Source: an uncultured Eubacteriales bacterium
GTDB lineage: Bacteria > Bacillota > Clostridia > TANB77 > UBA1234
NCBI GenBank assembly: GCA_949283575.1
Contig: CASDSU010000028.1
Coordinates: 128,849-192,848, forward strand
Direction of reading: 5' to 3'
Length of the DNA stretch: 64,000 bases
This document shows positions 5,795-33,299 of this stretch, in pieces. The position numbers and the translations under genes were made by a program. The notes beneath the pieces are model-generated. The model was not told the origin of the DNA and ran no database searches. It was given only the letters and a program-made list of their open reading frames with translations. How positions within the stretch are numbered: position 1 is the first letter of the stretch; each line of letters starts with the position of its first letter.

Positions 5795-5872
5795 GGTGGA
5801 TGTAGCTCAGTTGGTTAGAGCGCCAGGTTGTGGCCCTGGAGGTCGTGGGTTCGAGTCCCATCTTTCACCCCA
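5795..5872 (+). tRNA. tRNA-His (anticodon GTG) with G-1 and encoded CCA
   Basis: Hand-folded cloverleaf: G-1:C73, D-arm GCTC/GAGC, anticodon stem CCAGG/CCTGG, loop TTGTGGC, T-arm GTGGG-TTCGAGT-CCCAT, CCA at 5870-5872; one U-U mismatch in the acceptor stem. Confidence 0.85.
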
Positions 5873-5908
5873 CTTTTATAACTAACAAAAATGCAATAAA
5901 TTAAATAT

Positions 5909-5984
5909 TGGGCTGTAGCCAAGCGGTAAGGCACCAGACTTTGACTCTGGCATTTCGGCGGTTCGAATCCTCCCAGCCCAGCCA
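5909..5984 (+). tRNA. tRNA-Gln (anticodon TTG)
   Basis: Acceptor TGGGCTG/CAGCCCA, D-loop AGCGGTAA, anticodon stem CCAGA/TCTGG with loop CTTTGAC, T-loop GGTTCGAATCC, CCA encoded. Confidence 0.85.
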
Positions 5985-6080: not shown

Positions 6081-6181
6081 ATTCTCAGATTTTTTGAAGT
6101 TCTGAAAAGTATCGATTTCAAGTTACAAATTTAAGTTTCAGAAAAATTAGGTTCCAAAAGACTTTTAGGAAAGGAGAAAAA

Positions 6182-6742
6182 ATGGAAGCTAATTTCTATA
6201 AAATTAACGAATCCTTAGAAAATTCATTTTATCAAATCCCAGAAGAATTATTCAAAAACCCTATATATAAAGAAAAATTAGGCTTAGAAGCTAAAGTTTT
6301 ATATGCCTTTTTACTAAGCAGAATGCGATTATCTGCTCAGAATAATTGGATTGATGATGATGGGTATATCTATCTTATCTACAAACGTGTCGATGTTCAA
6401 AAGAAACTTAATCTATCAGATAAGACAGTTACAAAGGCATTCAAACAACTAAAAGAAGTCAAGTTAATACACGAAATAATCCAAGGAATTAATAAGCCTA
6501 ATATTATCTATTTAGCCAAAATAAAACACATGGATATGCCACAGAACTGGACTCGTAAAAATTACGAGCCCGGACACGGAAAAAATACGACTCCGAAGTC
6601 GGAAAATTTACGACCAATATATATAAATAAAGATAAAGAAAATAGATATAATATGCAAACTTCAAAATTTGACAATAGGTTTAGAGATAACAAAGGACAG
6701 TATGATGATTTAGATAAATATATTGAAAATTTTAAAGATTAA
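6182..6742 (+). CDS. replication initiator protein A, N-terminal domain family (RepA_N)
   Basis: LGLEAKVLYAFLLSRMRLS...W.DDDGYIYL motif typical of Firmicutes plasmid/ICE RepA_N; RBS GGAAAGGAG. Confidence 0.7.
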   Translation: MEANFYKINESLENSFYQIPEELFKNPIYKEKLGLEAKVLYAFLLSRMRLSAQNNWIDDDGYIYLIYKRVDVQKKLNLSDKTVTKAFKQLKEVKLIHEIIQGINKPNIIYLAKIKHMDMPQNWTRKNYEPGHGKNTTPKSENLRPIYINKDKENRYNMQTSKFDNRFRDNKGQYDDLDKYIENFKD

Positions 6743-6766
6743 TAAATAAAAAGGAGATGTCTTAAA

Positions 6767-7120
6767 ATGAAATTAGAATACTTAAAAAACGGAGATTATT
6801 ATATACCGAATATAGAATTAGGTTATGAAAATGTAAAGGTGAATTTAGGCAAATATGGAAGGCTAAGAGAAAAATATTTGAGAGAGCATAAACCTTCTTT
6901 ATTTGAGCATTTAAAGATGAGTGAAAGATTAATTCCTCATCTATCAAGTATAGATAAAGAAGCTAAAGCTTATGAAGCATTATTAATAAAACAATTTACT
7001 GAAAAGGAAAATGTTAATGAGAAATTGAAAGTAACAAATCAACTTGGGTGGGTAAAAAATATGAATTCAATTAAGCAAAGAGCCCAAGAAATTGTGTGCA
7101 ATGAAATGATTTATAATTAA
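6767..7120 (+). CDS. TnpV-like transposon-encoded protein
   Basis: KLEYLKNGDYYIP...G.YG.LR..YL..HKP...HL..ID..A...LKV.NQLGWVKNMN.I..RA.EIV resembles TnpV of Tn4451-type elements. Confidence 0.65.
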   Translation: MKLEYLKNGDYYIPNIELGYENVKVNLGKYGRLREKYLREHKPSLFEHLKMSERLIPHLSSIDKEAKAYEALLIKQFTEKENVNEKLKVTNQLGWVKNMNSIKQRAQEIVCNEMIYN

Positions 7121-7150
7121 AAATTCAACTATAGAAAAGAGGATGATTTT

Positions 7151-7474
7151 ATGCAAGAAAAAGGCTTATATGATTTAAGATTATGTGATTTCAATGAACT
7201 AATAAGTGAGGTAAAAGTAGCACTTAGAAACAAAAATAAAGAATATAAAAAGTTGCAAGACAAGTTAGAAAATATTATGGACAATCATCCAAATTTACAG
7301 ATGATTATGGAAGATGATACCGAGTTTAATTTAACAAAAACAGATTGTAAAATGCTTCAGAAATTATTTGAATTACATATAGAAATTCAAGCTTTGGAAG
7401 AACAAGAAATATTTTTCTTAGGTGGCAGAGAAGCTTACTATTATTTCAAAAATATTGGAATTTTAAAAGAATAA
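7151..7474 (+). CDS. hypothetical small helical protein of the mobilization module
   Basis: ORF with RBS AAGAGGATGA; position conserved between TnpV and MobC. Confidence 0.45.
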   Translation: MQEKGLYDLRLCDFNELISEVKVALRNKNKEYKKLQDKLENIMDNHPNLQMIMEDDTEFNLTKTDCKMLQKLFELHIEIQALEEQEIFFLGGREAYYYFKNIGILKE

Positions 7475-7479
7475 TTTAG

Positions 7480-7600
7480 AAGAAAATGCGGGTAAAAGCA
7501 GTGTTTCAAATGCGTTGAAAAATAAAAAGCAAGCAACGCATTTGTACTCCCGCACAAATACACTTGCATAGCTTTAGAATTAAAGCTATGTGATGGGAGA
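7480..7600 (+). promoter_or_regulatory. candidate origin of transfer (oriT) upstream of mobC
   Basis: Inverted repeats CAAATGCGTTG(7507-7517)/CAACGCATTTG(7534-7544), GCGGG/CCCGC arms, and palindrome TAGCTTTAGAATTAAAGCTA(7570-7589), directly upstream of MobC-relaxase. Confidence 0.4.
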
Positions 7601-7647
7601 ACCCAAGCCCCTTTTAATAAAAATTGTAAATGAAAGGAGTTAAAAAT

Positions 7648-7971
7648 ATGAGAAGAAGATCGATTAAAAAACAACTTTGGCTTAGTCAAACTGAAAATAA
7701 AATTTTGAAAGAAAAATCTAAAGTTACAGGACTAAATGAGTCCGAATTAATTCGTAGTTTTATAAAAGGTTATCGCATAAAAGAACAACCAACTGAAGAA
7801 ATAAAACAATTTCAAAAAGAGCTTTCTGGAATAGCAAATAATATAAATCAAATAGCAAAAATAGCAAACACATATCAGTTTGTAAAGCTAGATGATTTTA
7901 AATATATATCATCAAAACTTGCAGATTTTATTTTAAGATTTGAGAAGAAAATTTATTCAAGAGAGAAGTGA
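7648..7971 (+). CDS. mobC: MobC-family relaxosome accessory protein (ribbon-helix-helix)
   Basis: SELIRSFIKGY and GIANNINQIAK motifs; RBS AAAGGAG before ATG at 7648. Confidence 0.7.
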   Translation: MRRRSIKKQLWLSQTENKILKEKSKVTGLNESELIRSFIKGYRIKEQPTEEIKQFQKELSGIANNINQIAKIANTYQFVKLDDFKYISSKLADFILRFEKKIYSREK

Positions 7972-7977
7972 TTTAAA

Positions 7978-9276
7978 ATGGCTGTTATAAAAATTAAAAC
8001 TATAAAAAATAATTTAGAAGCCGTAGTAAACTATGCTCAAAATGGAGATAAAACCGAGAATGAAATATTAGTAACTGGAGTTAATTGTGTGCCACAAACT
8101 GCATATAGTCAAATGGCACTAACAAAGAAATTTTTTCATAAAGAAAGTGGTAGACAGGGTTATCATATTATTCAATCTTTTAATGGAAAAGAAGTTTCTC
8201 CAAACGAAGCCAATGAGCTTGGAACATTACTTGCAGAAGAATTATTTGGAGATAAATTTCAAGCTATAGTTTGTACTCATATAAACAAAGATAATATACA
8301 TAATCACATCGTTTTGAATTCTGTTTCATTTGTTGATGGAAGTAAACATCATAATTCAAAACTTGACATAGCATTAATAAAAGATAAGTCAGATGAGCTA
8401 TGCAAAGAGTATGAATTATCGGTAATCCAAACCTCAAAAGCAAGCAAAACCAATAAGACATATAAAAAAAGAATTTCAAAATACAATAGAAGTAATTCAA
8501 AGATGCTACAAGTGAAAGCTGACATTGATGATGCAATTGCTCAAAGTAGAAAAATGAGTGAATTTTATGATAATTTAAAAATCAAAGGTTATGAAACTTA
8601 CAAAAGAGGTATGTATCTTTCAGTAAAATTACCTTACTTTGCAAGGAATATTCGACTAGAAAGAGCTTTTGGAGAAGAATACTCACTTCATAACATTCAA
8701 GATAAAATTTATTATAGCGAAAAAACCGAAAATCAGAAAAATGGAATTAATAAGAAATATTATAGGAAAGTATATAAAGGACCTAAAATAGATAGCTTTA
8801 AGCTTAAATTTAGCCCATTTTATAGGTCATATGTTAGATGGCTTTACAAACTTGGAAAGTTACCACCTAAGATAGAATACGAAGAATTAACACCAGAATA
8901 TTTTAAGCAAAAAAGAGAAACACAAAATATTCTTGATGAAATTAGTTTTGTGGCTAGAAATAATATCAATAACATTCAAGATGTTCAAAATTGCGAAGAA
9001 TGGATTTCGGTTAAATTAACTAAAGTTAAAGGAGAGCGAGAAAATTTGTGGAGACAGTATAATAAGGCTAAATTACCAGAGAATAAAATTGAAATAAAAA
9101 TGAAAATTGATAGTAAAACTTGTGAAATTAATGCTTATAGCAATGAGCTAAAGATTTGTAGAAGGTTTATGTGGAGACGAGAAATACTTGGGAAAGAAAT
9201 AAGATTATTAAGAATTGAATTAGCAGAAAGTAAAAGAATAGTAAAAATGAAGAATTTATCACGTGAAAAATATTAA
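7978..9276 (+). CDS. MobA/VirD2-family relaxase (mobilization nuclease)
   Basis: N-terminal relaxase fold with HxxxDxxHxH metal motif (HINKDNIHNHIVLN), conserved Tyr region near the N-terminus, C-terminal coiled-coil. Confidence 0.8.
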   Translation: MAVIKIKTIKNNLEAVVNYAQNGDKTENEILVTGVNCVPQTAYSQMALTKKFFHKESGRQGYHIIQSFNGKEVSPNEANELGTLLAEELFGDKFQAIVCTHINKDNIHNHIVLNSVSFVDGSKHHNSKLDIALIKDKSDELCKEYELSVIQTSKASKTNKTYKKRISKYNRSNSKMLQVKADIDDAIAQSRKMSEFYDNLKIKGYETYKRGMYLSVKLPYFARNIRLERAFGEEYSLHNIQDKIYYSEKTENQKNGINKKYYRKVYKGPKIDSFKLKFSPFYRSYVRWLYKLGKLPPKIEYEELTPEYFKQKRETQNILDEISFVARNNINNIQDVQNCEEWISVKLTKVKGERENLWRQYNKAKLPENKIEIKMKIDSKTCEINAYSNELKICRRFMWRREILGKEIRLLRIELAESKRIVKMKNLSREKY

Positions 9277-9420
9277 ATATACAATTATAAATGAGACAAC
9301 AGAATCACGAAAAGATAGACTCATATTAAAAATATAATTTCAATAATTCTAAATACAGATTTGAAATAAAATGGTATTTATTTTATAATTCTGTTATAGA
9401 TAAATTGAGGAGGAAATATT

Positions 9421-9807
9421 ATGGATGAAAAATTTAATCAAGTGAAAAAATTAAATAAGATATCTAAAATTTTAACATTTATCATTGCAGGAGTATGGAT
9501 AATTGGTGGAATAATTGTATTTCAATTATATACTCTTTCTGATTTACAAATGGCATTTAAGGTTATAATAGATTTAATTATAAATAGTTTTAAAGGAAAA
9601 TTAAGTTTAGACGTCATATTAATTGCTTTAATGATAATAGATTTTATTGTTCTTTGTATTCAAACAAATAAATTAAAAGCTAATTGGAAAAAATTTATGA
9701 TAATTGAGTTGATAGTTAAAACATTAGTCTTATTTTACGTGGTAGGAGGATATATTTTATCTTTTTGGTATATGAATAGTTTTGTATTTGATGCATATGG
9801 AATATAA
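9421..9807 (+). CDS. small membrane protein (3-4 TM)
   Basis: RBS GAGGAGGAAA; hydrophobic helices. Confidence 0.5.
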   Translation: MDEKFNQVKKLNKISKILTFIIAGVWIIGGIIVFQLYTLSDLQMAFKVIIDLIINSFKGKLSLDVILIALMIIDFIVLCIQTNKLKANWKKFMIIELIVKTLVLFYVVGGYILSFWYMNSFVFDAYGI

Positions 9808-9859
9808 AATAAAAGGATACTTTCTTACTTGCACCAATTGTGCGAGTAAGAGTGATAAA

Positions 9860-9882
9860 GGTGCGACAAAAAATGTCGCACC
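9860..9882. repeat. perfect hairpin GGTGCGACA-AAAAA-TGTCGCACC; member of a local repeat family (other copies at about 12680-12705 and 13320-13345)
   Basis: 9-bp stem with A5 loop, preceded by ACCAATTGTGCGAGTA; a similar unit ACCAATGGTGCGAGTA plus GTACGACATTTTTCGTCGCAC lies at 12668-12705. Confidence 0.55.
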
Positions 9883-9927
9883 TTTGTCTTGCATCAACAG
9901 CACACTTTTTACATATTTTTTATCGGT

Positions 9928-10164
9928 TCACTTGTTCGGTTCTAGTATATTCCAATAACCTTTTCTATCAGAACCTATTCTTTCAATAATGTGTGTTTCT
10001 TTAAGTTTGCGTATATGATTTGTTATTGTACTTTTTCTAAATCCTGTTATTTCACATATTTCAACTTGTGTAATTTGAGGATTTTGATTCATTAGCTTAA
10101 TGATTTGAGAATCTATAATTTCTGTCTCTTTCTTCTGTCCATTTCTATTCACTTTCCAACACAT
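9928..10164 (-). pseudogene. orphan C-terminal winged-helix fragment, homologous to the HTH tail of the AlbA_2/HATPase_c_4 regulator at 13408..14871
   Basis: 78-aa ORF aligns to the C-terminus of the 487-aa protein (ILQFLADRDGAKNSEIANFIERSPSTTRKILAELKNKNII vs IIKLMNQNPQITQVEICEITGFRKSTITNHIRKLKETHII). It has no N-terminal domains and abuts the relaxase relic. Confidence 0.5.
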
Positions 10165-10180
10165 CTAAAATAGGTTGAAA

Positions 10181-10245
10181 ATAATGCTTATAGCAATGAG
10201 CTGAATATTTGTAGAAGGTTTATGTGGAGAAGAGAAATACTAAAA
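10181..10245 (+). repeat. relic of a second relaxase gene 3' end (about 63 bp, roughly 93% identical to 9128..9190)
   Basis: AATGCTTATAGCAATGAGCT[G]AA[T]ATTTGTAGAAGGTTTATGTGGAGA[A]GAGAAATACT matches the last codons of the relaxase at 7978..9276. Confidence 0.65.
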
Positions 10246-10396
10246 AAGAAACAAATATATTAAAAACACAAGAAATTTCTAAAGTCATTTTTAAAAGGAA
10301 AAAAGAAAAAGTACGATAATTATAAAAATGGCAAAGAAATTAAATCTCTGCCATTTCTTTATAACGAACTATTTTCACTCCTACTGATAATATTAA

Positions 10397-11533
10397 TTAC
10401 ATATTTTCAAAAAACAATTCATAAGTATTATCTGATTCATTTAAAAATTTTAATTCTACACACGAAAAATCCAACTCTTTTGGTATTTCAAAAACAACAT
10501 AAAATTGAGTAAGGTCTCCTTCGCAGTATTGCTTCTTTATTTCTCTTGGGATTATTGTTGCTCTAGTACTTCCTTCCAAAGCATTTTTTAAATCATAGGC
10601 TGAAACTGTAACTTCTGGTTTTACAGCAGAAAATGTTGATGTTGAATTAAACGGGAAATCTATATCAGTTAAATCTACATCAAATAATGCACAATACAAA
10701 TTTTTATTTTCATTTATTGTGTATTTAGGGAACAAACTTGTACCGCCATATCCTTCTGCAAAAGCTATATTATATTTACCAGCTTTTTCAAAAGCATTAT
10801 TATAATCTTCGATAATTTCAATAGCTGTGTTGCCACTATATATTTCTTTCATTTTTAAATGTAATGAACTCATTGAAATTTTATTATTTCCATTTTCATC
10901 AAGTCCAGTACCTGAGTGAAGATTAACAGTACCAGCTTGTCCTTTTAGGGCTGGTGTATCTGTATGAACCTTTGCTAAGGAAGCAAAACTTTCTTTTGGC
11001 AATTCTGGAATTTGAGTACTTGGTGTTATTCCTCTATACGTATCATCAAGTATTACAGAATTTGTGTTTCCATCCCATTTGATTTCTATATCAAACAAAT
11101 TTGAGATTGCACGTACAGGCAAATATGTAGTTCCTTGATAAGAAAGAGGATATACTACATTTTCGTTTACATCTTTAAAAGTTTGATACATTCCATCGTA
11201 TGAAACTCTTATTTTGTCATTTAATAGAACTTGAATATTTTCTGTAGGTTCAGCAATAAAATTTTCAATTGATTGCGCTGAAATTTTGTCTAATTCGCCT
11301 TCACCTAATTCTACAGCATTCAATTTTTGATTCCAATTAATTCTAATATTAAATATGCTAGAAATTGATCTTATTGGAAGATATGTAGTTCCTTCATAAG
11401 ATATAGGATAAACCTTCTGTCCACTTACATTTTTAAATTCTTGAATTTCATTATTATACAATATTTTCAATCCTTTGTTTAAAACTACATTAACATCTTG
11501 ACTTGCATATACGCAATTAGAGCAGAAAAACAT
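10397..11533 (-). CDS. secreted protein with two copper-amine-oxidase N-terminal-like (stalk) domains; probable true start upstream, disrupted by a T8 homopolymer
   Basis: Two repeats of Y.GTTYLP.R.IS..F...I.W. Removing one T from the run at 11553-11560 gives MKRIFLVISILAMFFCSNCVYA signal peptide in frame. Confidence 0.65.
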   Translation of the reverse strand: MFFCSNCVYASQDVNVVLNKGLKILYNNEIQEFKNVSGQKVYPISYEGTTYLPIRSISSIFNIRINWNQKLNAVELGEGELDKISAQSIENFIAEPTENIQVLLNDKIRVSYDGMYQTFKDVNENVVYPLSYQGTTYLPVRAISNLFDIEIKWDGNTNSVILDDTYRGITPSTQIPELPKESFASLAKVHTDTPALKGQAGTVNLHSGTGLDENGNNKISMSSLHLKMKEIYSGNTAIEIIEDYNNAFEKAGKYNIAFAEGYGGTSLFPKYTINENKNLYCALFDVDLTDIDFPFNSTSTFSAVKPEVTVSAYDLKNALEGSTRATIIPREIKKQYCEGDLTQFYVVFEIPKELDFSCVELKFLNESDNTYELFFENM

Positions 11534-11641
11534 TGCAAGTATCGAAATTACTAAAAAAAATTCTTTTCATATTTCATACCTCTTTTCTTTCGATTTGTTA
11601 ATTATATTATATCATTTTTAACTGTTACATTATAGAAAATT

Positions 11642-12508
11642 TTATTGTTTTAAGAATTCTTTACAAGCTTGATAAGAATATGTTACAAGATTTGCTAAAG
11701 ATTTATAATTCATTTCATAAAATGGTTTAACAAATTCGGTACTAATCTCTTTGCTGTTGTATGTTATAGATAAATGAGAGTATTTCTTAATAATTTTATC
11801 TAATTCTTCTTTTGATTTTAACTCATTTTCGTTAATTATAAATTTGCAATAAATTTTATATGTTGTTACTGGTGTACGTCGTATTTTTTTAGATACAATC
11901 TTAAATTCGAAGTAATTTCCATTACTATCTTTATAACCATTTTTATTTTCTAATTCTGAAATTTGTTTTCTTAAATTTCCAATAGCAAATTCTTCATCTG
12001 GAATAAATTTTTTTGAAGATTTTTTCTGTGTTTTTAATATATCCACTTGATTTTTCAGTTTTTTAATTTCTTCTCTTTTATTAAGACATTCGGTCAACTG
12101 ATATCTTTCAAATAAATATTCATCTAAATTATAATACCAAATACTTTTATAATAATCTGAAATTACAACTGTTGCTATGCCAACTCCGCAAGCAATTGGA
12201 AGTATAACTGCAATAATTATACTTAATACATTATTAATAGTTATTAAATTTATTATAAATGATATTAAAGATATAAATATAATTCCGAATACACCTAAAA
12301 ACACTTTGACTCTAGTTTCTTTTTTATTCTTTTCTTTCAATTTCTTGTATTCTTCATCTGAAATCTGTGTTATTTCCTTTATATCTTTATATCTTTTTCT
12401 GTAATCAATTCTTTTACCTATATCTAATCCTAATCCACTTCTAATCTCACTTGTTATTAATAAACCTATAAATATTATTATTAAATATATTATTGTTTTT
12501 AAGTTCAT
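11642..12508 (-). CDS. membrane protein with coiled-coil region (hypothetical)
   Basis: N-terminal TM, second TM pair, K/E-rich helix; RBS present. Confidence 0.5.
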   Translation of the reverse strand: MNLKTIIYLIIIFIGLLITSEIRSGLGLDIGKRIDYRKRYKDIKEITQISDEEYKKLKEKNKKETRVKVFLGVFGIIFISLISFIINLITINNVLSIIIAVILPIACGVGIATVVISDYYKSIWYYNLDEYLFERYQLTECLNKREEIKKLKNQVDILKTQKKSSKKFIPDEEFAIGNLRKQISELENKNGYKDSNGNYFEFKIVSKKIRRTPVTTYKIYCKFIINENELKSKEELDKIIKKYSHLSITYNSKEISTEFVKPFYEMNYKSLANLVTYSYQACKEFLKQ

Positions 12509-12724
12509 TTTTAAACTCCTTTATTTAAACTTCGTCAATCACTAATATATATTCTAAAATTATGTTATTTTCCATATAGCAACCATCCATTTTCGGCCGA
12601 GGTACATTTTTTAGTAATTATATGAGATATCTTGCAGTACAATTATTTATATATATTTCTCGTACCAATGGTGCGAGTATTGTACGACATTTTTCGTCGC
12701 ACATTTTATGAAATTATCTATGCA

Positions 12725-13333
12725 TTAACTTGATTTTAAACAATCTAATAATTCCATCCAACTTCTTTTGTCACATTCAAAACCATAATCTTCCGCATTT
12801 TCGAGTTCGAATATCATTTTTTCTTTTATCTCATTGGTTATTACCTCAACATTAGCAATAATAAAACTAAGAATTACACCTGTTATATATGTTTTTCTTC
12901 CTAAACCGTATTTTATTGCTTCTAGCATTAATAGTTCCAATTCATTGTTCGTAATGTTGATATCTATAACACCATCAAATTGTTTATCTTCAAATGATTG
13001 TTGCAGAGCTTTTTCTATCTTATTAGCAAAAGTAAGCCACTTCTCTTCATTATCTAAAGGTCCATAGAGTGGACTTGCGTTTCTTTCTTTGATATCTCTA
13101 ATAAAAATCATTTTCATTTTTTCTGACATATAATCAAGATTATCTATAACTATTTTCTGAAAAGTATCTAATTCAATATATTTAGCAGTATCTCTTAATT
13201 CGTTTCTTAATACACTAGCTAAAATTAATTCAAAATATAAATTTTTATTATTTATTTTCATAAAATCACCACTTTCTTGATTTATTATCTGTGAAATTTC
13301 CTGTGAAGTTATCTGTGCAGAATAATGCGACAA
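12725..13333 (-). CDS. hypothetical protein
   Basis: ORF with plausible internal start MKINNKN; no recognisable domain. Confidence 0.45.
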   Translation of the reverse strand: MSHYSAQITSQEISQIINQESGDFMKINNKNLYFELILASVLRNELRDTAKYIELDTFQKIVIDNLDYMSEKMKMIFIRDIKERNASPLYGPLDNEEKWLTFANKIEKALQQSFEDKQFDGVIDINITNNELELLMLEAIKYGLGRKTYITGVILSFIIANVEVITNEIKEKMIFELENAEDYGFECDKRSWMELLDCLKSS

Positions 13334-13344
13334 AAGTGCGACAT

Positions 13345-13413
13345 TACTCGCTCACTACTCGCTTTTACTCGCTCATTACTTGTTTCTACTCGCTCATTAC
13401 TCGCTTATTACAT
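13345..13413. repeat. tandem array of about 6.5 copies of a 10-11 bp unit TACTCGCT(C/T)(A/T)(C/T), helical-phase periodicity
   Basis: tactcgctcac|tactcgcttt|tactcgctcat|tacttgtttc|tactcgctcat|tactcgcttat|tacattc. Unit is the reverse complement of the GTGCGAGTA/GAGCGAGTA motif found at 9848 and 12676. Confidence 0.75.
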
Positions 13414-14871
13414 TCTTATTTTATATTTTCCTTTTGGGTCATTTTGAGATATTCCGTTCCAATAAATTATATTTTTATTTTTTAATTCAGCTAAAATTTT
13501 TCTTGTTGTAGAAGGGCTTCTTTCAATAAAATTTGCGATTTCTGAGTTTTTGGCACCGTCTCTATCTGCTAAAAATTGTAAAATTTTTCTTTCTGTTTCA
13601 TTGAAATTGTTCCAATTATCACTTATTGCACTATTCTTCTTTAAATCATCTTCTTGTCTTGCGTTTCTAGATAAATAATTATTTTTTAAAGTCAAAATAA
13701 ATATATCACTACTTGTTACTTTAAATTCGGGTTCTTCTAAAAAATATTTTTTCATTTCTCTATAAATTCTTGGTATTCCTTCGCTTAGTTCTCTTACAAC
13801 ACCAAATTCAGTTAAAGTTCTGGCTATAACACGATTTCTAGAGTATCTTTCTGTTTGTAAATTCTCTAAAGTTACTAATCCAGCAAGTTTTCCAGGACTT
13901 CTAATTTCCATTCTGTTGTTATAAATAAAAATCTTTATATATTCTCCACCCATTACATAATTTCTATGTGTAACAGCATTTGTAACACCTTCAACATAAG
14001 TGAATTCAGGGTATTCAGGTATAGTTTCAAATTCCCCTTCTGAATTTAAGTGTGTAGAATCTCTTAACTGTGTATGAACAAATTCTGGAACTTCCTTTAT
14101 TGCTTTATATAGTGGCAAGGCAAAAGTTTTATCTTTAATAATATTTAAATCTTTTCCGGGTAACATTTCATTTCCATCAAATTTTACAATTCTAATTCTG
14201 GCTGTAGGCAAATAAATTGATGGATCTTGAGCAAATAATAGTACGCCTGCTTTAGTTAATAATTTTTGTCCATTCACAATACTTTCTCTTAAAAAACCTC
14301 TAGCTCTTAAGACTTCTTCATCAGATTTATCTTCAGCGTCTATTTTTTGTTTATATATGCTTAAAACTTCCTTATCTATTATATCAATTGTAGCATAAGG
14401 AACCAACTCATCTTCAAATGAAACATCGGGTCTATCCATTTTCAATACTTGGATTTGCTCATCTGTTAATTTGATAGTTGAGTCACCTCGTCTTAAATAC
14501 ACTTCATCTTTTTGATTTCTAATTAATTTATTTAAACTAATCGCAATATGAAGTAACAAAACAGTATCATCTTCATTTTTTACATTTACTACGCTTAATT
14601 CTTCATATTTGATTTCTGGTTCTGCATTTAAATATTGAACACTTTTTCTAAATTGATTTAACTTATCTGGACAACTATTAAATCCAACAATCTCTCCATT
14701 GTTAGAAATTCCTACAGCAAGTATTCCTCCATCTGCATTTGCCATACCTGCAATATGATTTGCAAGGTCTAGTTCACTTATACTTGAACTTTTTCTATCA
14801 AAATTTTGATTTTCTCTGTTATTACATAAATATTCTAATGTAATAGCAGGATTTATTTTAGATGAAATCAT
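13408..14871 (-). CDS. AlbA_2 (Schlafen-like) / HATPase_c_4 / winged-helix putative ATP-binding regulator (RecG-C-terminal-like family)
   Basis: Architecture typical of the 'putative DNA-binding / ATP-dependent DNA helicase RecG C-terminal' family; C-terminal wHTH; operonic with the upstream gene (14-nt gap). Confidence 0.6.
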   Translation of the reverse strand: MISSKINPAITLEYLCNNRENQNFDRKSSSISELDLANHIAGMANADGGILAVGISNNGEIVGFNSCPDKLNQFRKSVQYLNAEPEIKYEELSVVNVKNEDDTVLLLHIAISLNKLIRNQKDEVYLRRGDSTIKLTDEQIQVLKMDRPDVSFEDELVPYATIDIIDKEVLSIYKQKIDAEDKSDEEVLRARGFLRESIVNGQKLLTKAGVLLFAQDPSIYLPTARIRIVKFDGNEMLPGKDLNIIKDKTFALPLYKAIKEVPEFVHTQLRDSTHLNSEGEFETIPEYPEFTYVEGVTNAVTHRNYVMGGEYIKIFIYNNRMEIRSPGKLAGLVTLENLQTERYSRNRVIARTLTEFGVVRELSEGIPRIYREMKKYFLEEPEFKVTSSDIFILTLKNNYLSRNARQEDDLKKNSAISDNWNNFNETERKILQFLADRDGAKNSEIANFIERSPSTTRKILAELKNKNIIYWNGISQNDPKGKYKIRM

Positions 14872-14885
14872 AAGTTACCTCCTAA

Positions 14886-15815
14886 TCACTTATTTTTTCT
14901 TTTTCTAGTATTAGCTATATTAGCCTTATTTCTACATGTTGTTGTATCATATTCAGCTTTTAAATTTTCAGCTATAAATGGTTTTCCACAATATTTACAT
15001 AGCCTAACTTCTGTTCTGCCATTTGTTTCGTTTAATAATAACATTGCATTAATTGCAGCTCTCAACGAATGAAAATTCCACTGAAATTTTATTTTTCCAT
15101 TTTCTATACCATATTTAAAATTAATTTTATATACTTCTTGGTTAAGTATCGTTTCGGCATAAAATTCTTTTAAATCAGGTTCTAAGTTACCATATAAATA
15201 AGTACCAATTACTCCTTTAGTGACATATACGCTTTCAGCAAAATCTATAATTTCAGATATTGGCTCTGCATAATTCTTTGAAAAAATAAAATCATTTAAA
15301 CGGTCACCTTCAACTTGTATAAGATTAGCGTCTAAACCAGAATTTCGGTGCAAATCATTAACTGTCATTTTTTTAGACCAATCAATCTTTTTATCAGGCC
15401 AAAAATATCTTTGCTCAAAATCTATTATTGATAATGAACTATCTAATTTTGAAGAATATGAGATTTCATTATCTTTCTCTAAAAAGTCAAAATTTTTAGG
15501 AAAATATCTAAAATTGCCTAACAACCCATATTTTGATACAAAATCTAACACAACTTTTTGAAATTCTTTTGTTTTACTCTTTGCTTCATAAGTTAAATTA
15601 GTATTGGTAAATTTTATAGTTTCATCTCCATTTACCATTTCGCCTATAATCATTAAATCCTTTAAAATATCATTTTTAATTTCAAAAGGGTCATAGGTAA
15701 TAGGCACTGCGTTTTCATCAGGTAAAACATAAAGAATATTATTATTTTTTTCAATTTTATATTTACTATACTTACACCATTTTGACATAAATTCGATTTT
15801 TTCTTCTTTTATCAT
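14886..15815 (-). CDS. hypothetical protein with C-terminal zinc-ribbon-like motif (CKYCGKPF...C) and basic tail
   Basis: ORF with RBS; CxxC...C at C-terminus followed by RKRKNK; no known domain recognised. Confidence 0.5.
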   Translation of the reverse strand: MIKEEKIEFMSKWCKYSKYKIEKNNNILYVLPDENAVPITYDPFEIKNDILKDLMIIGEMVNGDETIKFTNTNLTYEAKSKTKEFQKVVLDFVSKYGLLGNFRYFPKNFDFLEKDNEISYSSKLDSSLSIIDFEQRYFWPDKKIDWSKKMTVNDLHRNSGLDANLIQVEGDRLNDFIFSKNYAEPISEIIDFAESVYVTKGVIGTYLYGNLEPDLKEFYAETILNQEVYKINFKYGIENGKIKFQWNFHSLRAAINAMLLLNETNGRTEVRLCKYCGKPFIAENLKAEYDTTTCRNKANIANTRKRKNK

Positions 15816-16018
15816 TTCATCACCTCAAAAAAATTCATAAAAACACAAGAAAAATCTTGACTTATTTCGAATGATAATATATATTTGAAATAAGTTAGAA
15901 ACTATAATATTTCTAACACATTATAGTTTGTTTCTAAGATATATTTAAATTATATATCAAAAGTATTACAAAGTCAAATATATCTAAAGTAAAAAATGAT
16001 GAAAGGAGGGATGAACAC

Positions 16019-16222
16019 ATGAGAGATAAAGCTTTAGAATCAAAACCAATGCCAGTACTGTACTCAACAGATGATGTATGCAAAATGTTTCATATCAGTA
16101 GGCTTACTTGTCTAAACCTATTTCGCAGAAATGACTTTCCAGCTCAAAAGTTTGGACGAGCCTACAAAGTGGAAGCAAATGCACTAAATGAATATCTTAG
16201 CAAAAGACATATCTTGGCATAA
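16019..16222 (+). CDS. xis: excisionase-family DNA-binding protein (Xis, MerR-like HTH)
   Basis: 67 aa, small basic HTH protein immediately upstream of the integrase; RBS AAAGGAGGGATG. Confidence 0.65.
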   Translation: MRDKALESKPMPVLYSTDDVCKMFHISRLTCLNLFRRNDFPAQKFGRAYKVEANALNEYLSKRHILA

Positions 16223-16362
16223 AAAGAAAGAAGACTTAGAAAATGGCGTTTCTAAATCTTCAACACGAACCAGGGAATGTCCCAAGCTCTAACCTATGAG
16301 AAGATTATAACACAATAAAGTAATAGTTTTCAAGACATTCCCTTAAATTTTAAGAGGGATCT

Positions 16363-17778
16363 ATGAAAAAACTTATCGAAGGACGCGACTATTCAGTCAA
16401 TAAGTTCGTAACAAAAGATAAAAGAATTAGCTCTAATAGAAATATATGTCCTACTTGCAAAGATTGCAGCCATAAAAAACTATGTAGCAACAGAGCAACT
16501 CTATACACAATGAAGAAATGCGATAAATGTAGAGAATGCTTAGATAACGACAATTGTGATAAATATTATATCTATGTTAGATATAAAGCCGAAATCTTGA
16601 ATTTAGGGCATAATGAAATAACAGGAGAGCAAATAAGAAAACAATTCAGTGGAAAAACTAAAGAAGAAGCAGTTCAAAATTTATATAAGGCCTACGATGA
16701 AGTAATCAATAATAAGTCCAAAGAAAAAGAGACAAAAATCATTGAAGTATCAATAGTTAGCATAGCAACATCTCTTGAAGAAAAGAAACTCAAGAAAGGA
16801 CTTATTAAATCAAATGGATACAAAACGAATGCAGACACAATAAATAGAATTGGTAAAAACAAATTTGCAAATATTCCAATTCAAAATGTGACTAAAAAGC
16901 AAATTGAAGATTTCTTAGAAGAAGAAAGAAAAAACTTTAATTCTACTATCGGAAAGGATTTCAGAATTCTTAAAGGTGCATATAAAGAGGCACATAGAAA
17001 AGGTTTAATCAAAGAAAATTACTTTGACTCTGATGATCCAATAGAAAAGCCAAAAAGTCATAAGCAAGAAAAGAAAGTTGTAGCTTTAACAGCAAAAGAA
17101 CAATATCTTTTAGAAAGATATATCAATGAAAATTATTCAAAATATAACAACATCTTATTGCTATGTTTATACACAGGAATGCGAATTGGAGAAGTGTTAT
17201 CTTTAAGTCCTGATGCTATAACTTATGACAGTAAAAATGGCACTATCAATATAACAAGAACTTTAACAAGAGATAAAAATGGCAAAGTTATTATAGGAGA
17301 TGTGCCTAAAACTAAGAATGGTATTAGAAGAGTTGACCTAAGAGAAAATTCTAAAAGAGTTCTAGATAATGCACTTAAAGATATGAAGCCTAATCCTTAC
17401 AATGTAATATTTGCACAAGAAAATGGAGAGCTATACAAAGAAAGTATAATTAACAATGCTTTTAAAAGAATTGCAAAGAACGCAGGAATCAAAGTTATAA
17501 CTACCAAGAAGAAAAAGAAGAATGGAAAAACAGTAAATCTAAAATCTAGCACTGTAAATACACATATGCTTAGGCACACCTTTGCAACAAGATGTATCGA
17601 GGCAGGAGTTCCACTTCATATTCTTCAAAAAGTATTAGGTCATTCAAAATTCAAACAACTATTGATACATACGGAGATATCTACGATTACTTCAGGCAAA
17701 AAGAAATGGAAAAGTATGATGAATATATGGCAGAAATACACAATTCATTTAAGAAAGAATGCAAAAAATAAAATATAA
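16363..17778 (+). CDS. int: tyrosine-type site-specific integrase with Cys-rich N-terminal domain; C-terminus frameshifted at an A4 run (17646-17649) before the catalytic Tyr
   Basis: Conserved HMLRHTFATR and VLGHS motifs. The canonical ending ...IQTTIDTYGDIYDYFRQKEMEKYDEYM... is only in the +1 frame, recovered by inserting one A. Confidence 0.75.
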   Translation: MKKLIEGRDYSVNKFVTKDKRISSNRNICPTCKDCSHKKLCSNRATLYTMKKCDKCRECLDNDNCDKYYIYVRYKAEILNLGHNEITGEQIRKQFSGKTKEEAVQNLYKAYDEVINNKSKEKETKIIEVSIVSIATSLEEKKLKKGLIKSNGYKTNADTINRIGKNKFANIPIQNVTKKQIEDFLEEERKNFNSTIGKDFRILKGAYKEAHRKGLIKENYFDSDDPIEKPKSHKQEKKVVALTAKEQYLLERYINENYSKYNNILLLCLYTGMRIGEVLSLSPDAITYDSKNGTINITRTLTRDKNGKVIIGDVPKTKNGIRRVDLRENSKRVLDNALKDMKPNPYNVIFAQENGELYKESIINNAFKRIAKNAGIKVITTKKKKKNGKTVNLKSSTVNTHMLRHTFATRCIEAGVPLHILQKVLGHSKFKQLLIHTEISTITSGKKKWKSMMNIWQKYTIHLRKNAKNKI

Positions 17779-18381
17779 AAGTCAAACTAAATATTTCTGG
17801 AACTTAAGTTCCAAATAAGCATAAAATGCGAAAGACTTGAAATGATTTACGTGTTTTTACAAAAAAAGATTGGTGGTGAAATCACGTGATTACAATGCGA
17901 AAAAGCATAACAAATTTAAGAGATAGCAAAAAAGAGTTTATTTTAGATTGTAAGATTAGAAATCTAAATGTAGAAACAGACGCATTTACAATTCATCTAT
18001 TGCCTGATGATAAAATGAGACCGTTTTCTAATAAATACTAAATATAAAAAAGGACAAGAGCCCGGAAGAAGACTCATTGTCCTTTGCTATTTCTTAAAAA
18101 TTCTCTTGTGATTATATTGCAATTTTCTTAAATTTAAACCCAATCGCATTTTTTCCTTATTTGTAAGATTAAAAGCGTTGCTAATATATCCTTTTTAATC
18201 TCCACATTATAATCATCTAAATTTCTTGCTTTTTTCATCTATTTCCAAAAATACAAAAAATACATTGTAATAAATAACAAACTATATTTTATTACATTTT
18301 CTAGCATTAACTTTATTTCTTTTTTTAAATATTTTTTAAACTTTCTTTTAAATACGGTGTCATCCTCAATTTAAATCATCT

Positions 18382-18684
18382 CTACATATAATCCTTCGTT
18401 CCTTGTATAACCCTCTTCATAAAATTCATATACAAAACTGCTTCTTCCCTTTTTTCATACCCATCAAAAACATCAATCAAACATTCTTTTATCGAATCCA
18501 TTTCTTCTTTAAAATATTCTAACTCAGGAAGCTCTCTAATCATCTTTTCAAGCGAACTTGCAAACTCCAATTCATTTTCTGTTACCATTAACTCATAAAC
18601 TTCCTTAATAGTCTTCTCAATCATACTAACTTCTGTTTTCATTTTCATTATTTTTGGAACCAGCGTATTCGTATTTAATTTCAT
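18382..18684 (-). CDS. small helical acidic protein, partner of the upstream multi-AAA gene
   Basis: 100 aa; RBS AGGAGGAG; 12-nt gap to upstream gene. Confidence 0.5.
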   Translation of the reverse strand: MKLNTNTLVPKIMKMKTEVSMIEKTIKEVYELMVTENELEFASSLEKMIRELPELEYFKEEMDSIKECLIDVFDGYEKREEAVLYMNFMKRVIQGTKDYM

Positions 18685-18696
18685 AACAAGCTCCTC

Positions 18697-21600
18697 CTAA
18701 TCTAAATCTTCTGGTAATATATTTACAAGTGTATCCTTATCCATTTCTGTCATCATAGAAAGTCTCAACGCCTGATTATTTAACGATCTTTCAAATACAT
18801 TTCTAACATATCTACCATTACCAAATCTCACATCCTGCTTTGCTACTGCAAGTATCATTTTTAACTTTTCTTTCGCTTCTTTTGTCAAATTATATCCATT
18901 TTTTTGATACATTTTATCAGCAATAACCATTAGTTCATCTACTGTATAATCTTCAAATTCTATTACATTTGGGAACCTAGACATAAGTCCCGAATTAACA
19001 TCTAAAAATTCAGTCATCTCTTTACTGTATCCTGCAAGTATTACTACAAGTTTATCACGATTGTCATCCATTAATTTTATTAATGTGTCAATTGCTTCTT
19101 TTCCGAAATCACTATTTCCTCCTTGAGATAACGCATAAGCTTCATCAATAAATAGCACACCATTAAAAGCTTCTTTTACTTTTTCAGTTGTCTTCATAGC
19201 TGTTTGCCCAACGTAGCCAGCAACAAGACCAGCTCTATCTGTTTCAACTAATTTGTCAGTCGAAATAACCCCAAGTTTGTATAGCATATTTGCAACAGCT
19301 CTAGCCATCATGGTTTTTCCTGTACCTGGATTTCCTTTAAAAATCATGTGAAGTGATTGTTCATCATTTACGATTAGTCCCATTTTCTTACGCTCATTCA
19401 TGATTTTTATTCTAGCAGCAAGCATTCTAATGTATTGTTTTACAGATTCTAATCCAATTATGCTATCAAAAATTTGTTCATAATCATATTCACTATTTTC
19501 AGTTTCGTATTTCTTGCCTACATCTTCTGGCAAAATAATATTAATATCATTTAATGCTACATCTTCTAGCATCGCAATTCTTGTACTTTGATTTCTAACA
19601 ATTTCATCAATAAGATTCCTAACCATTCTTCCATTTCCAGAATAAGTAGCTGCTGTTTTCTTCATAAATTCTAATTTTTCAGCGGCAACAGCTCTTGCTT
19701 CATCTGTTATCTGGAACCCTCTCGAGGCAATCATTTTATCAAAAATTTGTGCAAGCTCATCAGCTGTATAATCTGGGAAATCAAGTTTAAGTGGAAATCT
19801 AGATTCTAAACCAGAATTTGCTTTTAAGAAATCACCCATTTCTTTTTCATAGCCTGCAAGTATTACTAAAATTTCTCCTCTATGATCTTCCATAAGTTTT
19901 ATTAATGTGTCAATTGCTTCTCTTCCGAAATCACCATCTCCGCCTTGTGATAACGAATATGCTTCATCAATAAATAATACTCCACCTAGTGCACTATTAA
20001 ACACATCAGTTGTTTTTGGAGCGGTTTGTCCAACATATTCAGCAACTAAATCTGCTCTCGCAACTTCAACAATATGACCTTGTCTTAAAAATCCCATTTC
20101 TTTAAGCATTTGTGAAACAAGCCTTGCTACTGTTGTTTTACCAGTTCCAGGATTTCCTATAAAAATCATATTCAAAGACTGAGTAACATCGGTTGTAACT
20201 CCAAGACTTCTTCTCTTTTCTTGAGCTTTCAAAATATTATATTGATTTCTTAAAAAGTCTTTAACATTATCAAGACCAATTATTTTCGAAAGCGCTTCTT
20301 CTAAATCAAAATTTTCTTTCTTTTCAAGTTCAAAATCTACAAGCTTAATTAATGAATAATCGACTTCATTCTCTTTAACGATTCTAACTGCTTGATTTGC
20401 CATCGCAGATTCCATTACATTTCTAACAAGACGACCGTTTCCATTAGGATTTTTTCCTGTATAAATTTTCGATTCAAAAAATTCTATAAGTGGCTCATAA
20501 CAATTAACATCAATCTTATATTCATTTTGCTTTGCAATATTTTCAGCAATTCGATACATCTCATCAGCGGTATAATCTTTAAAATCAATTATATTTTGAA
20601 ACCTTGATTTAAGTCCGGTTGCTAAGCGAAGCATATCATCCATTTCATCTTTATATCCAGCAAGAATTACAACTAAATTATCTCTATTATCTTCAATCAT
20701 TTTAAGCAAAGTCTCAATTGCTTCTTTTCCATAATCATCCGTTTTTGAATTCAGCAACGAATAAGCTTCGTCAATAAACAGAACTCCTCCAAAAGCTGAT
20801 GCAACGCATTCCCTTGTCATTTGAGCAGTTTCACCAGGATGACTTCCAACTAAATTTGCTCTACTTACTTCTACAAAATGTCCTTTTTCTAGCATCCCAA
20901 GTGCACTCAAATACTCAGCAACAATTCTTGCAATAGTAGTTTTACCTGTACCAGGATTACCTGTAAAAATCATATTAAGCGGAAGTGGCGCAACTCTCAT
21001 TCCCGCACGCTCCCTCATTTTTTGAGCAGTTATATTATCCTCTAAACGATATAAATAATCTTTGACTTCATTAAGTCCAATTATCGAATTAAGTTTAGCT
21101 TTAACAATAGTAAGTCGATTCGAAACCCTCGAATCAGCTGCATTATCTAGCAATAATTTTTCTCCATTAGACTCTATAAAAATTTGCTCATCTTCAACAC
21201 CAATTATATATTGTTGTTTATTACTGATTTTTCCTTTCAATTTATACTCAGAAATTGGTCTAAAAATCCTGTGATCAATTAACAAATTAACACCATTAAT
21301 TCCAGTCGCACTAGAATATGTATTTCTCAAATATTCTTCAAGTGAAAACATATAATCAATATTAATATCTAAATCCTTTTTACATTTTTTCTTAAAATGT
21401 TCTATAAGAGAATTTATCATTTGATTAATTTCTTCTTCAGTAAAATCATTCGCGGTAATAACGTCCTTAATATTTTCTGCAATATCAAGTCCTATTACAT
21501 CTTCAAATTCATGCTCAGGTTTATTTGAAATGAAAACAAAATATTCTCCATTTGTTTTTATCTCAAGAACACCCTTAGGAGTATTAATTTCTATTCTTCC

Positions 21601-22593
21601 ATACTTACACAGGTTCTTAACAAACGTCTTACACGATTCGCTTCCTAGCTCAAAATTCTGAAAAATCATTACTTCTGAACCATCATTAACAGCATCACAA
21701 TATGTATTAACAAAATTTCCAAGAGACTCCTCTTTTTTAAACATTACAAAATCGAAGACTTTTGGCTCACCATTTAAAATCTTTTCCTTTCGCATGTGCA
21801 TAACTAGGTCATCAATTAGATTACTAACAAATACACTTTCATTTGAATAAATTGTAATGATATTTTTCAAGAAATTAGCATCTTGTTGTTTTATGGTATA
21901 TGGTCTTTTAAATGCAAGAACCAAATTACTTACAAAATCTTTTCTCGATATTTTTTCTAAAAGTGATGTCTCTATCTCATCAAAAATTTGATTCAAATCC
22001 TTTTTCTTCTTAGGCTTCTCTTCTTCTTTTTCTGATTCAGGCGAATAGATTGCTTTATACCTTTTTTCATCAATTTTAAAATTAGTTTTGTATAAATCTA
22101 TAAGTTTAACTTGTTCTGCAGTTATTTCTCCACCTTTTTTCATAAAACTAATAATCATTCTAAGTACGCTATCTTCATAAAGCTCTTGCTCTGCAAGCGG
22201 CATGGAAGCGCACGTTTCATCGATAACAGTTTTTAATCTCAAAATATAATTTTTGTTACTTTCATGCCCGCCAAAAGAGAATCCTTTTTTACTTTCTTTT
22301 TTATAAAAATTATATAAATATTCATATTGCTTTTTTGTTAAATTTTGTTTTCTCAAAAAATCATCCAAAAAAGCTACAAACTCTTCTTCTCTTCCCCCCT
22401 CATGAGCACGCGCAATATTGGCAAACAAACCTGTAAAGCAACATGACACCTCAGGTGGCATCTCTTCACTCTTATATAATTTGCCAGCTTGAATACGTAT
22501 TTCATTATTACAAATTGGACAAATCATCGTTGTCTTATTTGAAGAAGTATTTATTTCAGAATTACAGTATGGACATACCGGAATTTTAGCCAT
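18697..22593 (-). CDS. 1298-aa protein: N-terminal zinc ribbon plus three tandem CbxX/SpoVK-type AAA+ ATPase modules
   Basis: CPYCNSEIN...ICPICNNEI zinc ribbon. Three Walker A GNPGTGKT(T/M), three Walker B LFIDEAY(S/A)L, and the VILAGY motif of the CbxX/SpoVK clade repeated three times. Confidence 0.75.
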   Translation of the reverse strand: MAKIPVCPYCNSEINTSSNKTTMICPICNNEIRIQAGKLYKSEEMPPEVSCCFTGLFANIARAHEGGREEEFVAFLDDFLRKQNLTKKQYEYLYNFYKKESKKGFSFGGHESNKNYILRLKTVIDETCASMPLAEQELYEDSVLRMIISFMKKGGEITAEQVKLIDLYKTNFKIDEKRYKAIYSPESEKEEEKPKKKKDLNQIFDEIETSLLEKISRKDFVSNLVLAFKRPYTIKQQDANFLKNIITIYSNESVFVSNLIDDLVMHMRKEKILNGEPKVFDFVMFKKEESLGNFVNTYCDAVNDGSEVMIFQNFELGSESCKTFVKNLCKYGRIEINTPKGVLEIKTNGEYFVFISNKPEHEFEDVIGLDIAENIKDVITANDFTEEEINQMINSLIEHFKKKCKKDLDINIDYMFSLEEYLRNTYSSATGINGVNLLIDHRIFRPISEYKLKGKISNKQQYIIGVEDEQIFIESNGEKLLLDNAADSRVSNRLTIVKAKLNSIIGLNEVKDYLYRLEDNITAQKMRERAGMRVAPLPLNMIFTGNPGTGKTTIARIVAEYLSALGMLEKGHFVEVSRANLVGSHPGETAQMTRECVASAFGGVLFIDEAYSLLNSKTDDYGKEAIETLLKMIEDNRDNLVVILAGYKDEMDDMLRLATGLKSRFQNIIDFKDYTADEMYRIAENIAKQNEYKIDVNCYEPLIEFFESKIYTGKNPNGNGRLVRNVMESAMANQAVRIVKENEVDYSLIKLVDFELEKKENFDLEEALSKIIGLDNVKDFLRNQYNILKAQEKRRSLGVTTDVTQSLNMIFIGNPGTGKTTVARLVSQMLKEMGFLRQGHIVEVARADLVAEYVGQTAPKTTDVFNSALGGVLFIDEAYSLSQGGDGDFGREAIDTLIKLMEDHRGEILVILAGYEKEMGDFLKANSGLESRFPLKLDFPDYTADELAQIFDKMIASRGFQITDEARAVAAEKLEFMKKTAATYSGNGRMVRNLIDEIVRNQSTRIAMLEDVALNDINIILPEDVGKKYETENSEYDYEQIFDSIIGLESVKQYIRMLAARIKIMNERKKMGLIVNDEQSLHMIFKGNPGTGKTMMARAVANMLYKLGVISTDKLVETDRAGLVAGYVGQTAMKTTEKVKEAFNGVLFIDEAYALSQGGNSDFGKEAIDTLIKLMDDNRDKLVVILAGYSKEMTEFLDVNSGLMSRFPNVIEFEDYTVDELMVIADKMYQKNGYNLTKEAKEKLKMILAVAKQDVRFGNGRYVRNVFERSLNNQALRLSMMTEMDKDTLVNILPEDLD

Positions 22594-31372: not shown

Positions 31373-31376
31373 CAAA

Positions 31377-31445
31377 TGGACAAAAGCCCCGTCCCCTTGT
31401 CCACAAAAAAGAAACGACCATCCACAGATAGTCGTTTCTTTTTTG
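31377..31445. terminator. two tandem hairpins between convergent genes
   Basis: TGGACAA-N13-TTGTCCA and GAAACGAC-N12-GTCGTTTC followed by T7. Confidence 0.55.
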
Positions 31446-31478
31446 TGTAATCAAACCTTAAACATACTCTTTCGAGCG

Positions 31479-33134: not shown

Positions 33135-33299
33135 GAGAATAACCTCCTTTTTCCGCATTATCTGCGAAACAGTCCAAAAGAAAAATTCCGTCTCTAAGAT
33201 ATTATCCTATTCGCCAAACTTTGACAAGCATAAAATAAAAAGTCCTGAAAATACTTGTTTACAGGGCTTTTATTTAAAGTTTATATGTAAACTGATTGG

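Follow-up and report, generated by a model that had tools for sequence, protein, structure and literature searches.

A Schlafen gene in the exchangeable cargo slot behind a conserved zinc-finger gene of a clostridial mobilisable element

Do two tightly linked genes of a mobile element form one functional unit, or do they merely lie next to one another? The question is raised by a 64,000-nucleotide (nt) stretch of DNA from an uncultured Eubacteriales bacterium (contig CASDSU010000028.1, positions 128,849 to 192,848; hereafter the window). It carries an integrative mobilisable element (IME) of about 12 kilobases (kb) with two conserved arms. Within this element, the gene for a 309-residue protein, p309, is followed by that for a 487-residue AlbA_2 protein, a prokaryotic Schlafen. 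An original prediction had taken both genes for cargo, and had proposed that they constitute a dedicated module for phage defence or abortive infection. The comparison of related loci described here makes it near-certain that p309 is a backbone gene of the element and that the AlbA_2 gene is cargo. The explanation that we favour, with slightly more confidence than doubt, is a composite one: p309 would be the switch of the element or the regulator of its cargo operon, and AlbA_2 a swappable defence gene carried on its promoter. The regulator part of this explanation is about evenly balanced.

A backbone gene and its exchangeable neighbour

The following features define the two genes and the slot in which one of them lies.

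14886-15815, minus strand: p309 (309 residues), core backbone gene; predicted ABATE-like body, C-terminal CGNR-type treble-clef zinc finger and basic tail
14872-14885, minus strand: 14-nt spacer between p309 and the AlbA_2 gene (TTAGGAGGTAACTT) with an AGGAGG ribosome-binding site (Shine-Dalgarno) and without a terminator
13408-14871, minus strand: AlbA_2 gene (487 residues), prokaryotic Schlafen, first gene of the variable cargo
9277-14885: variable cargo, running from the relaxase stop codon to the convergent stop codon of p309; its limits follow from homology break points in sister elements and from gene content

Both reading frames, the 14-nt gap and the operon arrangement are as originally described. 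Because the spacer leaves no room for a terminator, the sequence implies that the two genes are probably co-transcribed. The pair also adjoins the excisionase and integrase genes (xis and int), but it is not simply upstream of them; p309 stands head-to-head with xis, and the two units are transcribed divergently.

The survey covered 116 related loci with 93 p309-family genes, 31 of which belong to the subfamily of the window and 62 to a distant subfamily 2; the loci are non-independent samples, and the counts are descriptive. In the window's subfamily, xis and a tyrosine integrase gene lie head-to-head with p309 in 19 of the 24 loci with enough upstream sequence, and in one further locus the integrase gene alone does so. 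On the other side of p309, a same-strand neighbour is present in 73 loci and absent in 13. Such first-slot genes begin 2-50 nt past the p309 stop codon and encode YhcG/DUF1016 (20 loci), RhuM (12), AlbA_2 (10, plus the window) or Fic (8); rarer are HipA-like (3), CHC2 zinc-finger (3), AAA_14-DUF4143 (2), PemK (1) and CAT-like (1) genes. These family names were checked with Pfam, except that the CAT-like gene was taken for a chloramphenicol acetyltransferase (CAT) gene from its sequence only.

The two genes have separate histories, because the downstream families are swapped, homology breaks between the genes, their divergence is discordant and AlbA_2 orthologues occur without p309. Proteins of the p309 family that are 98-99% identical precede AlbA_2, YhcG or Fic genes, and others precede an AAA_14 gene in one locus and a HipA-like gene in another. 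Sister elements share approximately 95% identity between the integrase end and L001 position 8935 (surveyed loci carry the prefix L), the base with which p309 ends; from L001 position 11610, the relaxase stop codon, the sequences are once more identical, and the DNA between these points is unrelated. In L001, p309 is 56% identical to that of the window, but the adjoining AlbA_2 protein is only 23% identical, over half its length. Conversely, an AlbA_2 protein with 65% identity is found beside a p309 protein with 34% identity. Orthologues of the window's AlbA_2 at 74-79% identity lie in loci without any p309 relative, one of them adjoining AbiE genes.

The neighbourhood comparison that the original prediction had itself put forward as a check thus essentially goes against it; the dedicated module is largely refuted by the finding that AlbA_2 follows only 10 family genes and that of the window, out of 93 in the 116 loci. 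Nor is p309 cargo, as had been thought: it is a conserved backbone gene, at whose stop codon the homology breaks. The cargo slot is exchanged by recombination in the flanking core genes, and several toxin-like defence genes, AlbA_2 among them, take the place behind p309 interchangeably.

Hotspots flanked by core genes are already known. Defence genes reportedly lie between core genes of mobile elements in the P2/P4 hotspots and in hotspot 5 of the SXT integrative and conjugative element (ICE), which resemble the present slot in their conserved flanks and in the sharp break points around unrelated defence-type genes. Here, however, the carrier is a small IME of Clostridia that targets transfer RNA (tRNA) genes; its first slot shares an operon with a core gene, and is strongly biased to single-gene toxin-like families that are otherwise found inside restriction-modification (R-M) operons.

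Setting the false 'two-gene system' apart keeps a spurious pair out of defence-system catalogues. In addition, the unannotated p309 family is a marker of a cargo slot in the small mobilisable elements that human-gut Clostridia carry; nearly all that fills this slot are candidates for single-gene, toxin-like defence, and p309 could therefore serve as bait for such genes in poorly studied anaerobes.

Properties of the two proteins

All three domains that had been predicted for the 487-residue protein score above their Pfam cut-offs. SLFN_AlbA_2 (PF04326) covers residues 20-135 (59.5 bits against a cut-off of 25.3; E = 6e-16), HATPase_c_4 (PF13749) follows with 72.4 bits (E = 3e-20), and a C-terminal HTH_24/MarR winged helix-turn-helix (wHTH) spans residues 424-469 (E = 8e-7). 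The catalytic Ex4(E/D)xK motif of prokaryotic Schlafens, as defined in PMC13056530 (2026), is intact (ENQNFDRK, residues 20-27), and the Mg/ATP ExxxN box of the GHKL ATPase is represented by EGVTN (residues 294-298). Because this domain order, the Ex4DxK motif and the ExxxN box are all present, the protein is a new member of a known family, the Slfn-GHKL ATPase-HTH Schlafens ('Schlatpase-HTH' or 'HisKinase-HTH' class).

Prokaryotic Schlafens were published in 2026 as single-gene anti-phage tRNases. Among 5,930 of them, 34% are fused to a histidine-kinase-like ATPase and 19.2% to an ATPase plus HTH; the protective constructs named in the same study are a DUF262 fusion and an Ig-like fusion (PMC13056530). 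An Enterococcus Schlafen with an unannotated C-terminus also defends against phage. The combination of AlbA_2 and PF13749 has been named the 'Schlatpase' supradomain and occurs in 58.6% of 103,533 Slfn proteins, which are mostly small, with no further domain or a short HTH (bioRxiv 10.64898/2026.05.29.728809, 2026). Both studies lend support to the proposal that the AlbA_2/HATPase_c_4 protein is a Schlafen-type defence candidate.

The window protein resembles the HisKinase-HTH class in the order AlbA_2/Slfn, PF13749 GHKL ATPase and short C-terminal HTH, and also in its mobile-element setting among defence-type genes. In contrast, the characterised Schlafens carry Ig-like, DUF262 or Argonaute sensors where the window protein has a wHTH; defence has been demonstrated for other Schlafen classes, whereas its own exact class, Slfn-GHKL-HTH, is known by sequence. 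By analogy, the protein would be an ATP-dependent, phage-triggered tRNase that acts alone. None of the defence-system models of PADLOC-DB 2.0, a resource to which the original prediction had pointed, is matched as a whole by either protein: p309 has no model, and the sole match of the AlbA_2 protein is to positions 60-466 of the 1121-position pAgo model, which correspond to its Slfn-GHKL part. The locus places a member of the most common yet uncharacterised Schlafen class in a simple, clonable context.

Unlike HisKinase-HTH Schlafens in general, the gene in the window has a repeat array behind it.

13342-13411: 11-nt tandem array, 6.5 copies, starting from the AlbA_2 stop codon

Arrays of 9-11-nt repeats begin at the stop codons of cargo genes, of the AlbA_2 and Fic families, that encode a wHTH with the terminal motif 'DPxxxY(K/R)I'. 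They accompany the AlbA_2 gene of the window, two of its orthologues (L118 and L122, just past the stop) and several Fic genes (3-4 copies of 11 nt); apart from the window and these two orthologues, the loci with arrays are L021 (11954-12000), L024, L026, L037 and L038. The repeat unit differs between lineages. No array was found behind YhcG (0 of 11) or RhuM genes (0 of 10), or behind the AlbA_2 gene of L121, which has a different wHTH. The observation is uneven, in that some 'repeats' of L118 and L122 are, at least in part, terminator hairpins in which one stem sequence recurs. The 11-nt arrays may be cognate sites of the adjoining wHTH. Between the array in the window and the start of the next cargo gene, a 12-nt unit (ATTATCTGTGAA) is present in 2.8 copies (13284-13317); the product of that gene, 178 residues as called in L117, matches phrog_11947.

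The second protein, p309, belongs to no Pfam, NCBIfam or PADLOC family; scans with these three and with PHROGs gave weak zinc-finger matches only, in keeping with the earlier statement that it has no known domain beyond a C-terminal zinc ribbon and a basic tail. A search with the single sequence yielded 260 proteins, and a profile search of 1.84 billion representatives yielded 404 family clusters (50% identity) at E <= 1e-3, many of them full-length with approximately 280-330 residues. The C-terminus of p309 reads CKYCGKPF...EYDTTTCRNKAN, followed by the basic tail; the consensus of 40 diverse family members is CKHCGKxF...EYCSxxCRNxxNVYKSRxK. Where the family consensus has four Cys ligands and CRNQ, the window protein has C273, C276, D290 and C294 with CRNK; Asp as the third zinc ligand is invariant in its subfamily. 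The Pfam family zf-CGNR (PF11706) matches 6 of the 40 members (best E = 1.6e-4) and does not match p309 of the window, and ABATE (PF07336) matches none of the 40 at E <= 0.01.

Structure prediction with AlphaFold gave a predicted local distance difference test (pLDDT) score of 38.8 from a 12-sequence alignment, and a usable model once 120 distant relatives had been added. A Foldseek search of the p309 model against the PDB returned no match, and a Foldseek-type structure search against BFVD returned one unnamed viral protein of 211 residues. The best structural match is the ABATE/CGNR putative regulator 3H0N, to whose zinc finger the family profile aligns marginally (E = 0.5). Compared with ABATE/CGNR proteins (PF07336 plus PF11706; Jann_2411, PDB 3H0N), p309 is about 120 residues longer, has no ABATE match in Pfam and, with its subfamily, has the third Cys replaced by Asp. 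The reference proteins occur in genomes of Proteobacteria and Actinobacteria, and their own function is a prediction only; the p309 family is restricted to the integrative elements of gut Clostridia. From these properties we infer that p309 is a zinc-finger DNA-binding regulator and a distant, enlarged relative of the ABATE/CGNR proteins.

Searches by tblastn with both subfamilies found the family in none of the PLSDB plasmids and, among phage records, in two tiny faecal contigs only. A full-text literature search on the CGNR zinc finger returned nothing about the p309 family, and both the family and its link to integrative elements appear to be undescribed.

The promoter region and the possible roles of p309

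The region in front of p309, together with the spacer between xis and int, contains four predicted elements.

15949-15977, minus strand: predicted promoter towards p309, TTGACT-17-TATAAT (promoter scan and conservation)
15857-15885, plus strand: predicted promoter towards xis-int, TTGACT-17-TATATT (promoter scan and conservation)
15895-15937: inverted repeats between the predicted starts, TTAGAAAC-N7-TTTCTAA plus GTTTCTAA; candidate operator
16221-16333, minus strand: conserved antisense unit in the xis-int spacer (promoter 16333-16304, hairpin 16261-16230, then a T run)

Aligned across 25 distinct relatives, the p309/xis spacer is conserved in the two promoters and the central inverted repeat, and the hexamers are invariant or nearly so. 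The promoters lie face to face with predicted starts about 50 nt apart (near 15892 on the plus strand and 15942 on the minus strand), so that the predicted transcripts overlap across the repeat at 15895-15937. Judged from its sequence, this geometry is that of a switch. The fallback role that had been suggested for the 309-residue protein, an element-maintenance regulator, is considered reasonable here. The palindrome TTAGAAA-N(4-10)-TTTCTAA occurs twice in the 64 kb (0.03 copies expected), once in the promoter overlap and once between xis and int. The idea that a single palindrome is the operator shared by the spacer and the xis-int gap fits the window, but it fails in the relatives and was rejected.

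According to the composite explanation, p309 would be expressed from the promoter that faces the xis-int promoter, and would most likely act on the inverted repeat between the two. It would hold xis-int down, keeping excision low in the integrated state, and would control how strongly its own operon is transcribed; the cargo would be expressed in that state. First-slot genes would depend on the p309 promoter because they start so close behind its stop codon; lacking a promoter of their own, they would ride on the p309 transcript. We infer DNA binding by p309, its target and the direction of regulation, as well as an anti-phage activity of the Schlafen.

Phages 186 and P2 have face-to-face promoter switches, and in the cI-rexAB operon of phage lambda, defence genes lie behind the regulator. 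The likeness to these phages consists in a maintenance regulator transcribed towards an opposing excision or lytic promoter and, in the case of lambda, in defence genes co-transcribed behind the regulator. The present arrangement differs in that the carrier is a mobilisable element and not a phage, that the fold of p309 is unrelated to CI and that an extra antisense small RNA is predicted between xis and int; it is, moreover, known from sequence. Overall, this is a system of ordinary kind with a new regulator family, and it provides a compact, testable candidate for an excision switch, in which face-to-face promoters would be combined with a zinc-finger regulator and an antisense RNA.

The antisense unit consists of a promoter (TTGAAA-18-TGTTATAAT), a hairpin of 13 base pairs and a T run, with a fold z-score of -4.2, and is kept at the same position in L001, L011, L017, L021-L025 and L030. 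The predicted product is a small RNA of about 75 nt (16221-16297) that would be antisense to the 3' end of xis and to the int leader. A second conserved inverted repeat (GGGAATGTC...GACATTCCC) brackets the antisense promoter and adjoins the ribosome-binding site of int.

Several observations do not fit readily with p309 as an excision switch. Elements with the 62 genes of subfamily 2 carry a TnpX-like large serine recombinase, TnpW and a MobA/L relaxase; their p309-like gene follows an unannotated gene of about 215 residues, and the recombinase is not adjacent. What is constant in both subfamilies is the slot behind the p309-like gene. Its first position is strikingly biased to toxin-like families, several of which are placed inside R-M operons in the literature, and CGNR-finger proteins adjoin the LlaJI R-M genes in Tn6164 and phage 1207.3.

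These points would fit a p309 that is no excision regulator at all, but a general-purpose controller or partner of whichever toxic gene fills the first slot, comparable to the C-proteins of R-M systems, or a sensor for swappable effectors. The distant recombinase of subfamily 2 and the LlaJI neighbours are readily accommodated by such a role, as is the toxin-like gene that begins within 50 nt of p309 in both subfamilies (YhcG, RhuM, Slfn, Fic, HipA-like and PemK in 20, 12, 11, 8, 3 and 1 of the 73 same-strand loci, respectively) and, PemK apart, mostly belongs to a family otherwise embedded in R-M operons. It is less easily reconciled with p309-like proteins that are 96-98% identical and yet precede RhuM, a CAT-like resistance gene (named by its sequence only) or nothing, or with the 13 loci that have no same-strand neighbour. 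Furthermore, a single protein is unlikely to make contact with effectors of unrelated structure, an excision switch is what the conserved face-to-face xis promoter points to, and the surveyed loci are not independent samples. We consider this role rather unlikely. Taken further, the p309 family would be a new gatekeeper class that licenses, by transcription or by sensing, the fused Schlafen, YhcG, Fic, RhuM or HipA-like effectors, and the 11-nt arrays may tether or regulate effectors with a 'DPxxxYKI' wHTH. In that form the idea is improbable; if true, p309 would play the role that the type I R-M complex plays for such genes elsewhere.

It is also improbable that p309 is a core protein with a non-regulatory task, for example as an accessory factor of integration or excision, or in replicating or mobilising the circle once excised. 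In favour of such a task, the gene belongs to the conserved backbone and adjoins xis-int, zinc-finger DNA binders also serve as architectural factors, and the family is missing from plasmids and nearly so from phages. However, p309 shows no resemblance to a recombinase, relaxase, primase or nuclease, the recombinase that accompanies subfamily 2 is an unrelated serine enzyme, and the promoter geometry is that of a switch. Least credible is the dedicated two-gene module travelling as cargo: despite tight linkage and co-transcription, and a pairing that recurs in L001-6, L013, L121, L051 and L088, only about 11 of 86 informative loci have it, the AlbA_2 genes involved are not orthologous (the 23% partial alignment) and diverge discordantly from p309, orthologues at 74-79% identity lack a p309 neighbour, homology between sister elements breaks between the genes, and published Schlafen systems act as single genes.

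With regard to subfamily 2 itself, the gene of about 215 residues (74 in L031) lies about 190 nt upstream of the p309-like gene on the same strand; this layout is seen in L034/L035 (6159-11043), L031 (6590-8603) and 47 metagenome loci. In one of these elements, the slot holds the gene taken for a chloramphenicol acetyltransferase. A resemblance of its product to sigma region 4, seen by eye, was dropped, as Pfam gave no match. A literature search on TnpY, TnpW and TnpV of Tn4451 found nothing.

The remainder of the element and its surroundings

Outside the slot and the promoter region, the element comprises the following features.

5796-5984: tRNA-His and tRNA-Gln
6182-9276, plus strand: replication/mobilisation arm with RepA_N, TnpV, DUF6664, NikA/MobC and relaxase, whose stop codon forms the second border of the cargo slot
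16019-16222, plus strand: excisionase xis (HTH_17)
16363-17778, plus strand: tyrosine integrase

One conserved arm is formed by int-xis-p309 and the other by RepA_N-TnpV-MobC-relaxase. The order is tRNA-His/tRNA-Gln, RepA_N, TnpV, DUF6664, NikA/MobC, relaxase, cargo, p309, xis and tyrosine integrase; minus-strand genes fill the approximately 5.6 kb between the relaxase end (9276) and p309. The tRNAs, RepA_N, relaxase, xis and integrase identified around the pair bear out the IME context that had been predicted: the element has an integrase with an excisionase and a relaxase with an accessory protein, and is without conjugation machinery. In an Rfam scan, the two tRNAs are the sole matches within the element.

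The sole candidate for an attachment (att) site in the window is an 11-nt repeat, ACAAATTTAAG, at 6125-6135 and 17910-17920. Related elements end in a tRNA 3' fragment instead (L001 5862, L019 7861, L011 7831), and relatives with the common backbone occupy several different chromosomal sites; target choice therefore varies within the element family.

A direct repeat of 66 nt (94%) is also present, in which the 3' end of the relaxase gene (9123-9188) is copied inside the cargo at 10176-10241. It encloses open reading frames (ORFs) for a 128-residue membrane protein and a 78-residue wHTH protein, and was likely left behind as a scar when cargo was exchanged through recombination at this border. 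Pieces of the 3' end of p309 are also present beyond the limits of related elements (L001 4764-4878, L030 20645-20751).

Directly beyond the integrase end, a 1298-residue protein is encoded at 18697-22593 (minus strand), with an N-terminal zinc ribbon and three AAA+ modules of SpoVK/CbbX/EccA type; it has weak PADLOC matches to the IetA and TRIP13 models. Its gene is followed by an ORF for 100 residues (18382-18684, minus strand), and both ORFs occur in the sole other contig bearing the element. Elsewhere in the window, two blocks of high guanine-plus-cytosine content (31000-33200 and 43000-45000; 0.42-0.56 versus about 0.30 elsewhere) probably mark ribosomal RNA genes.

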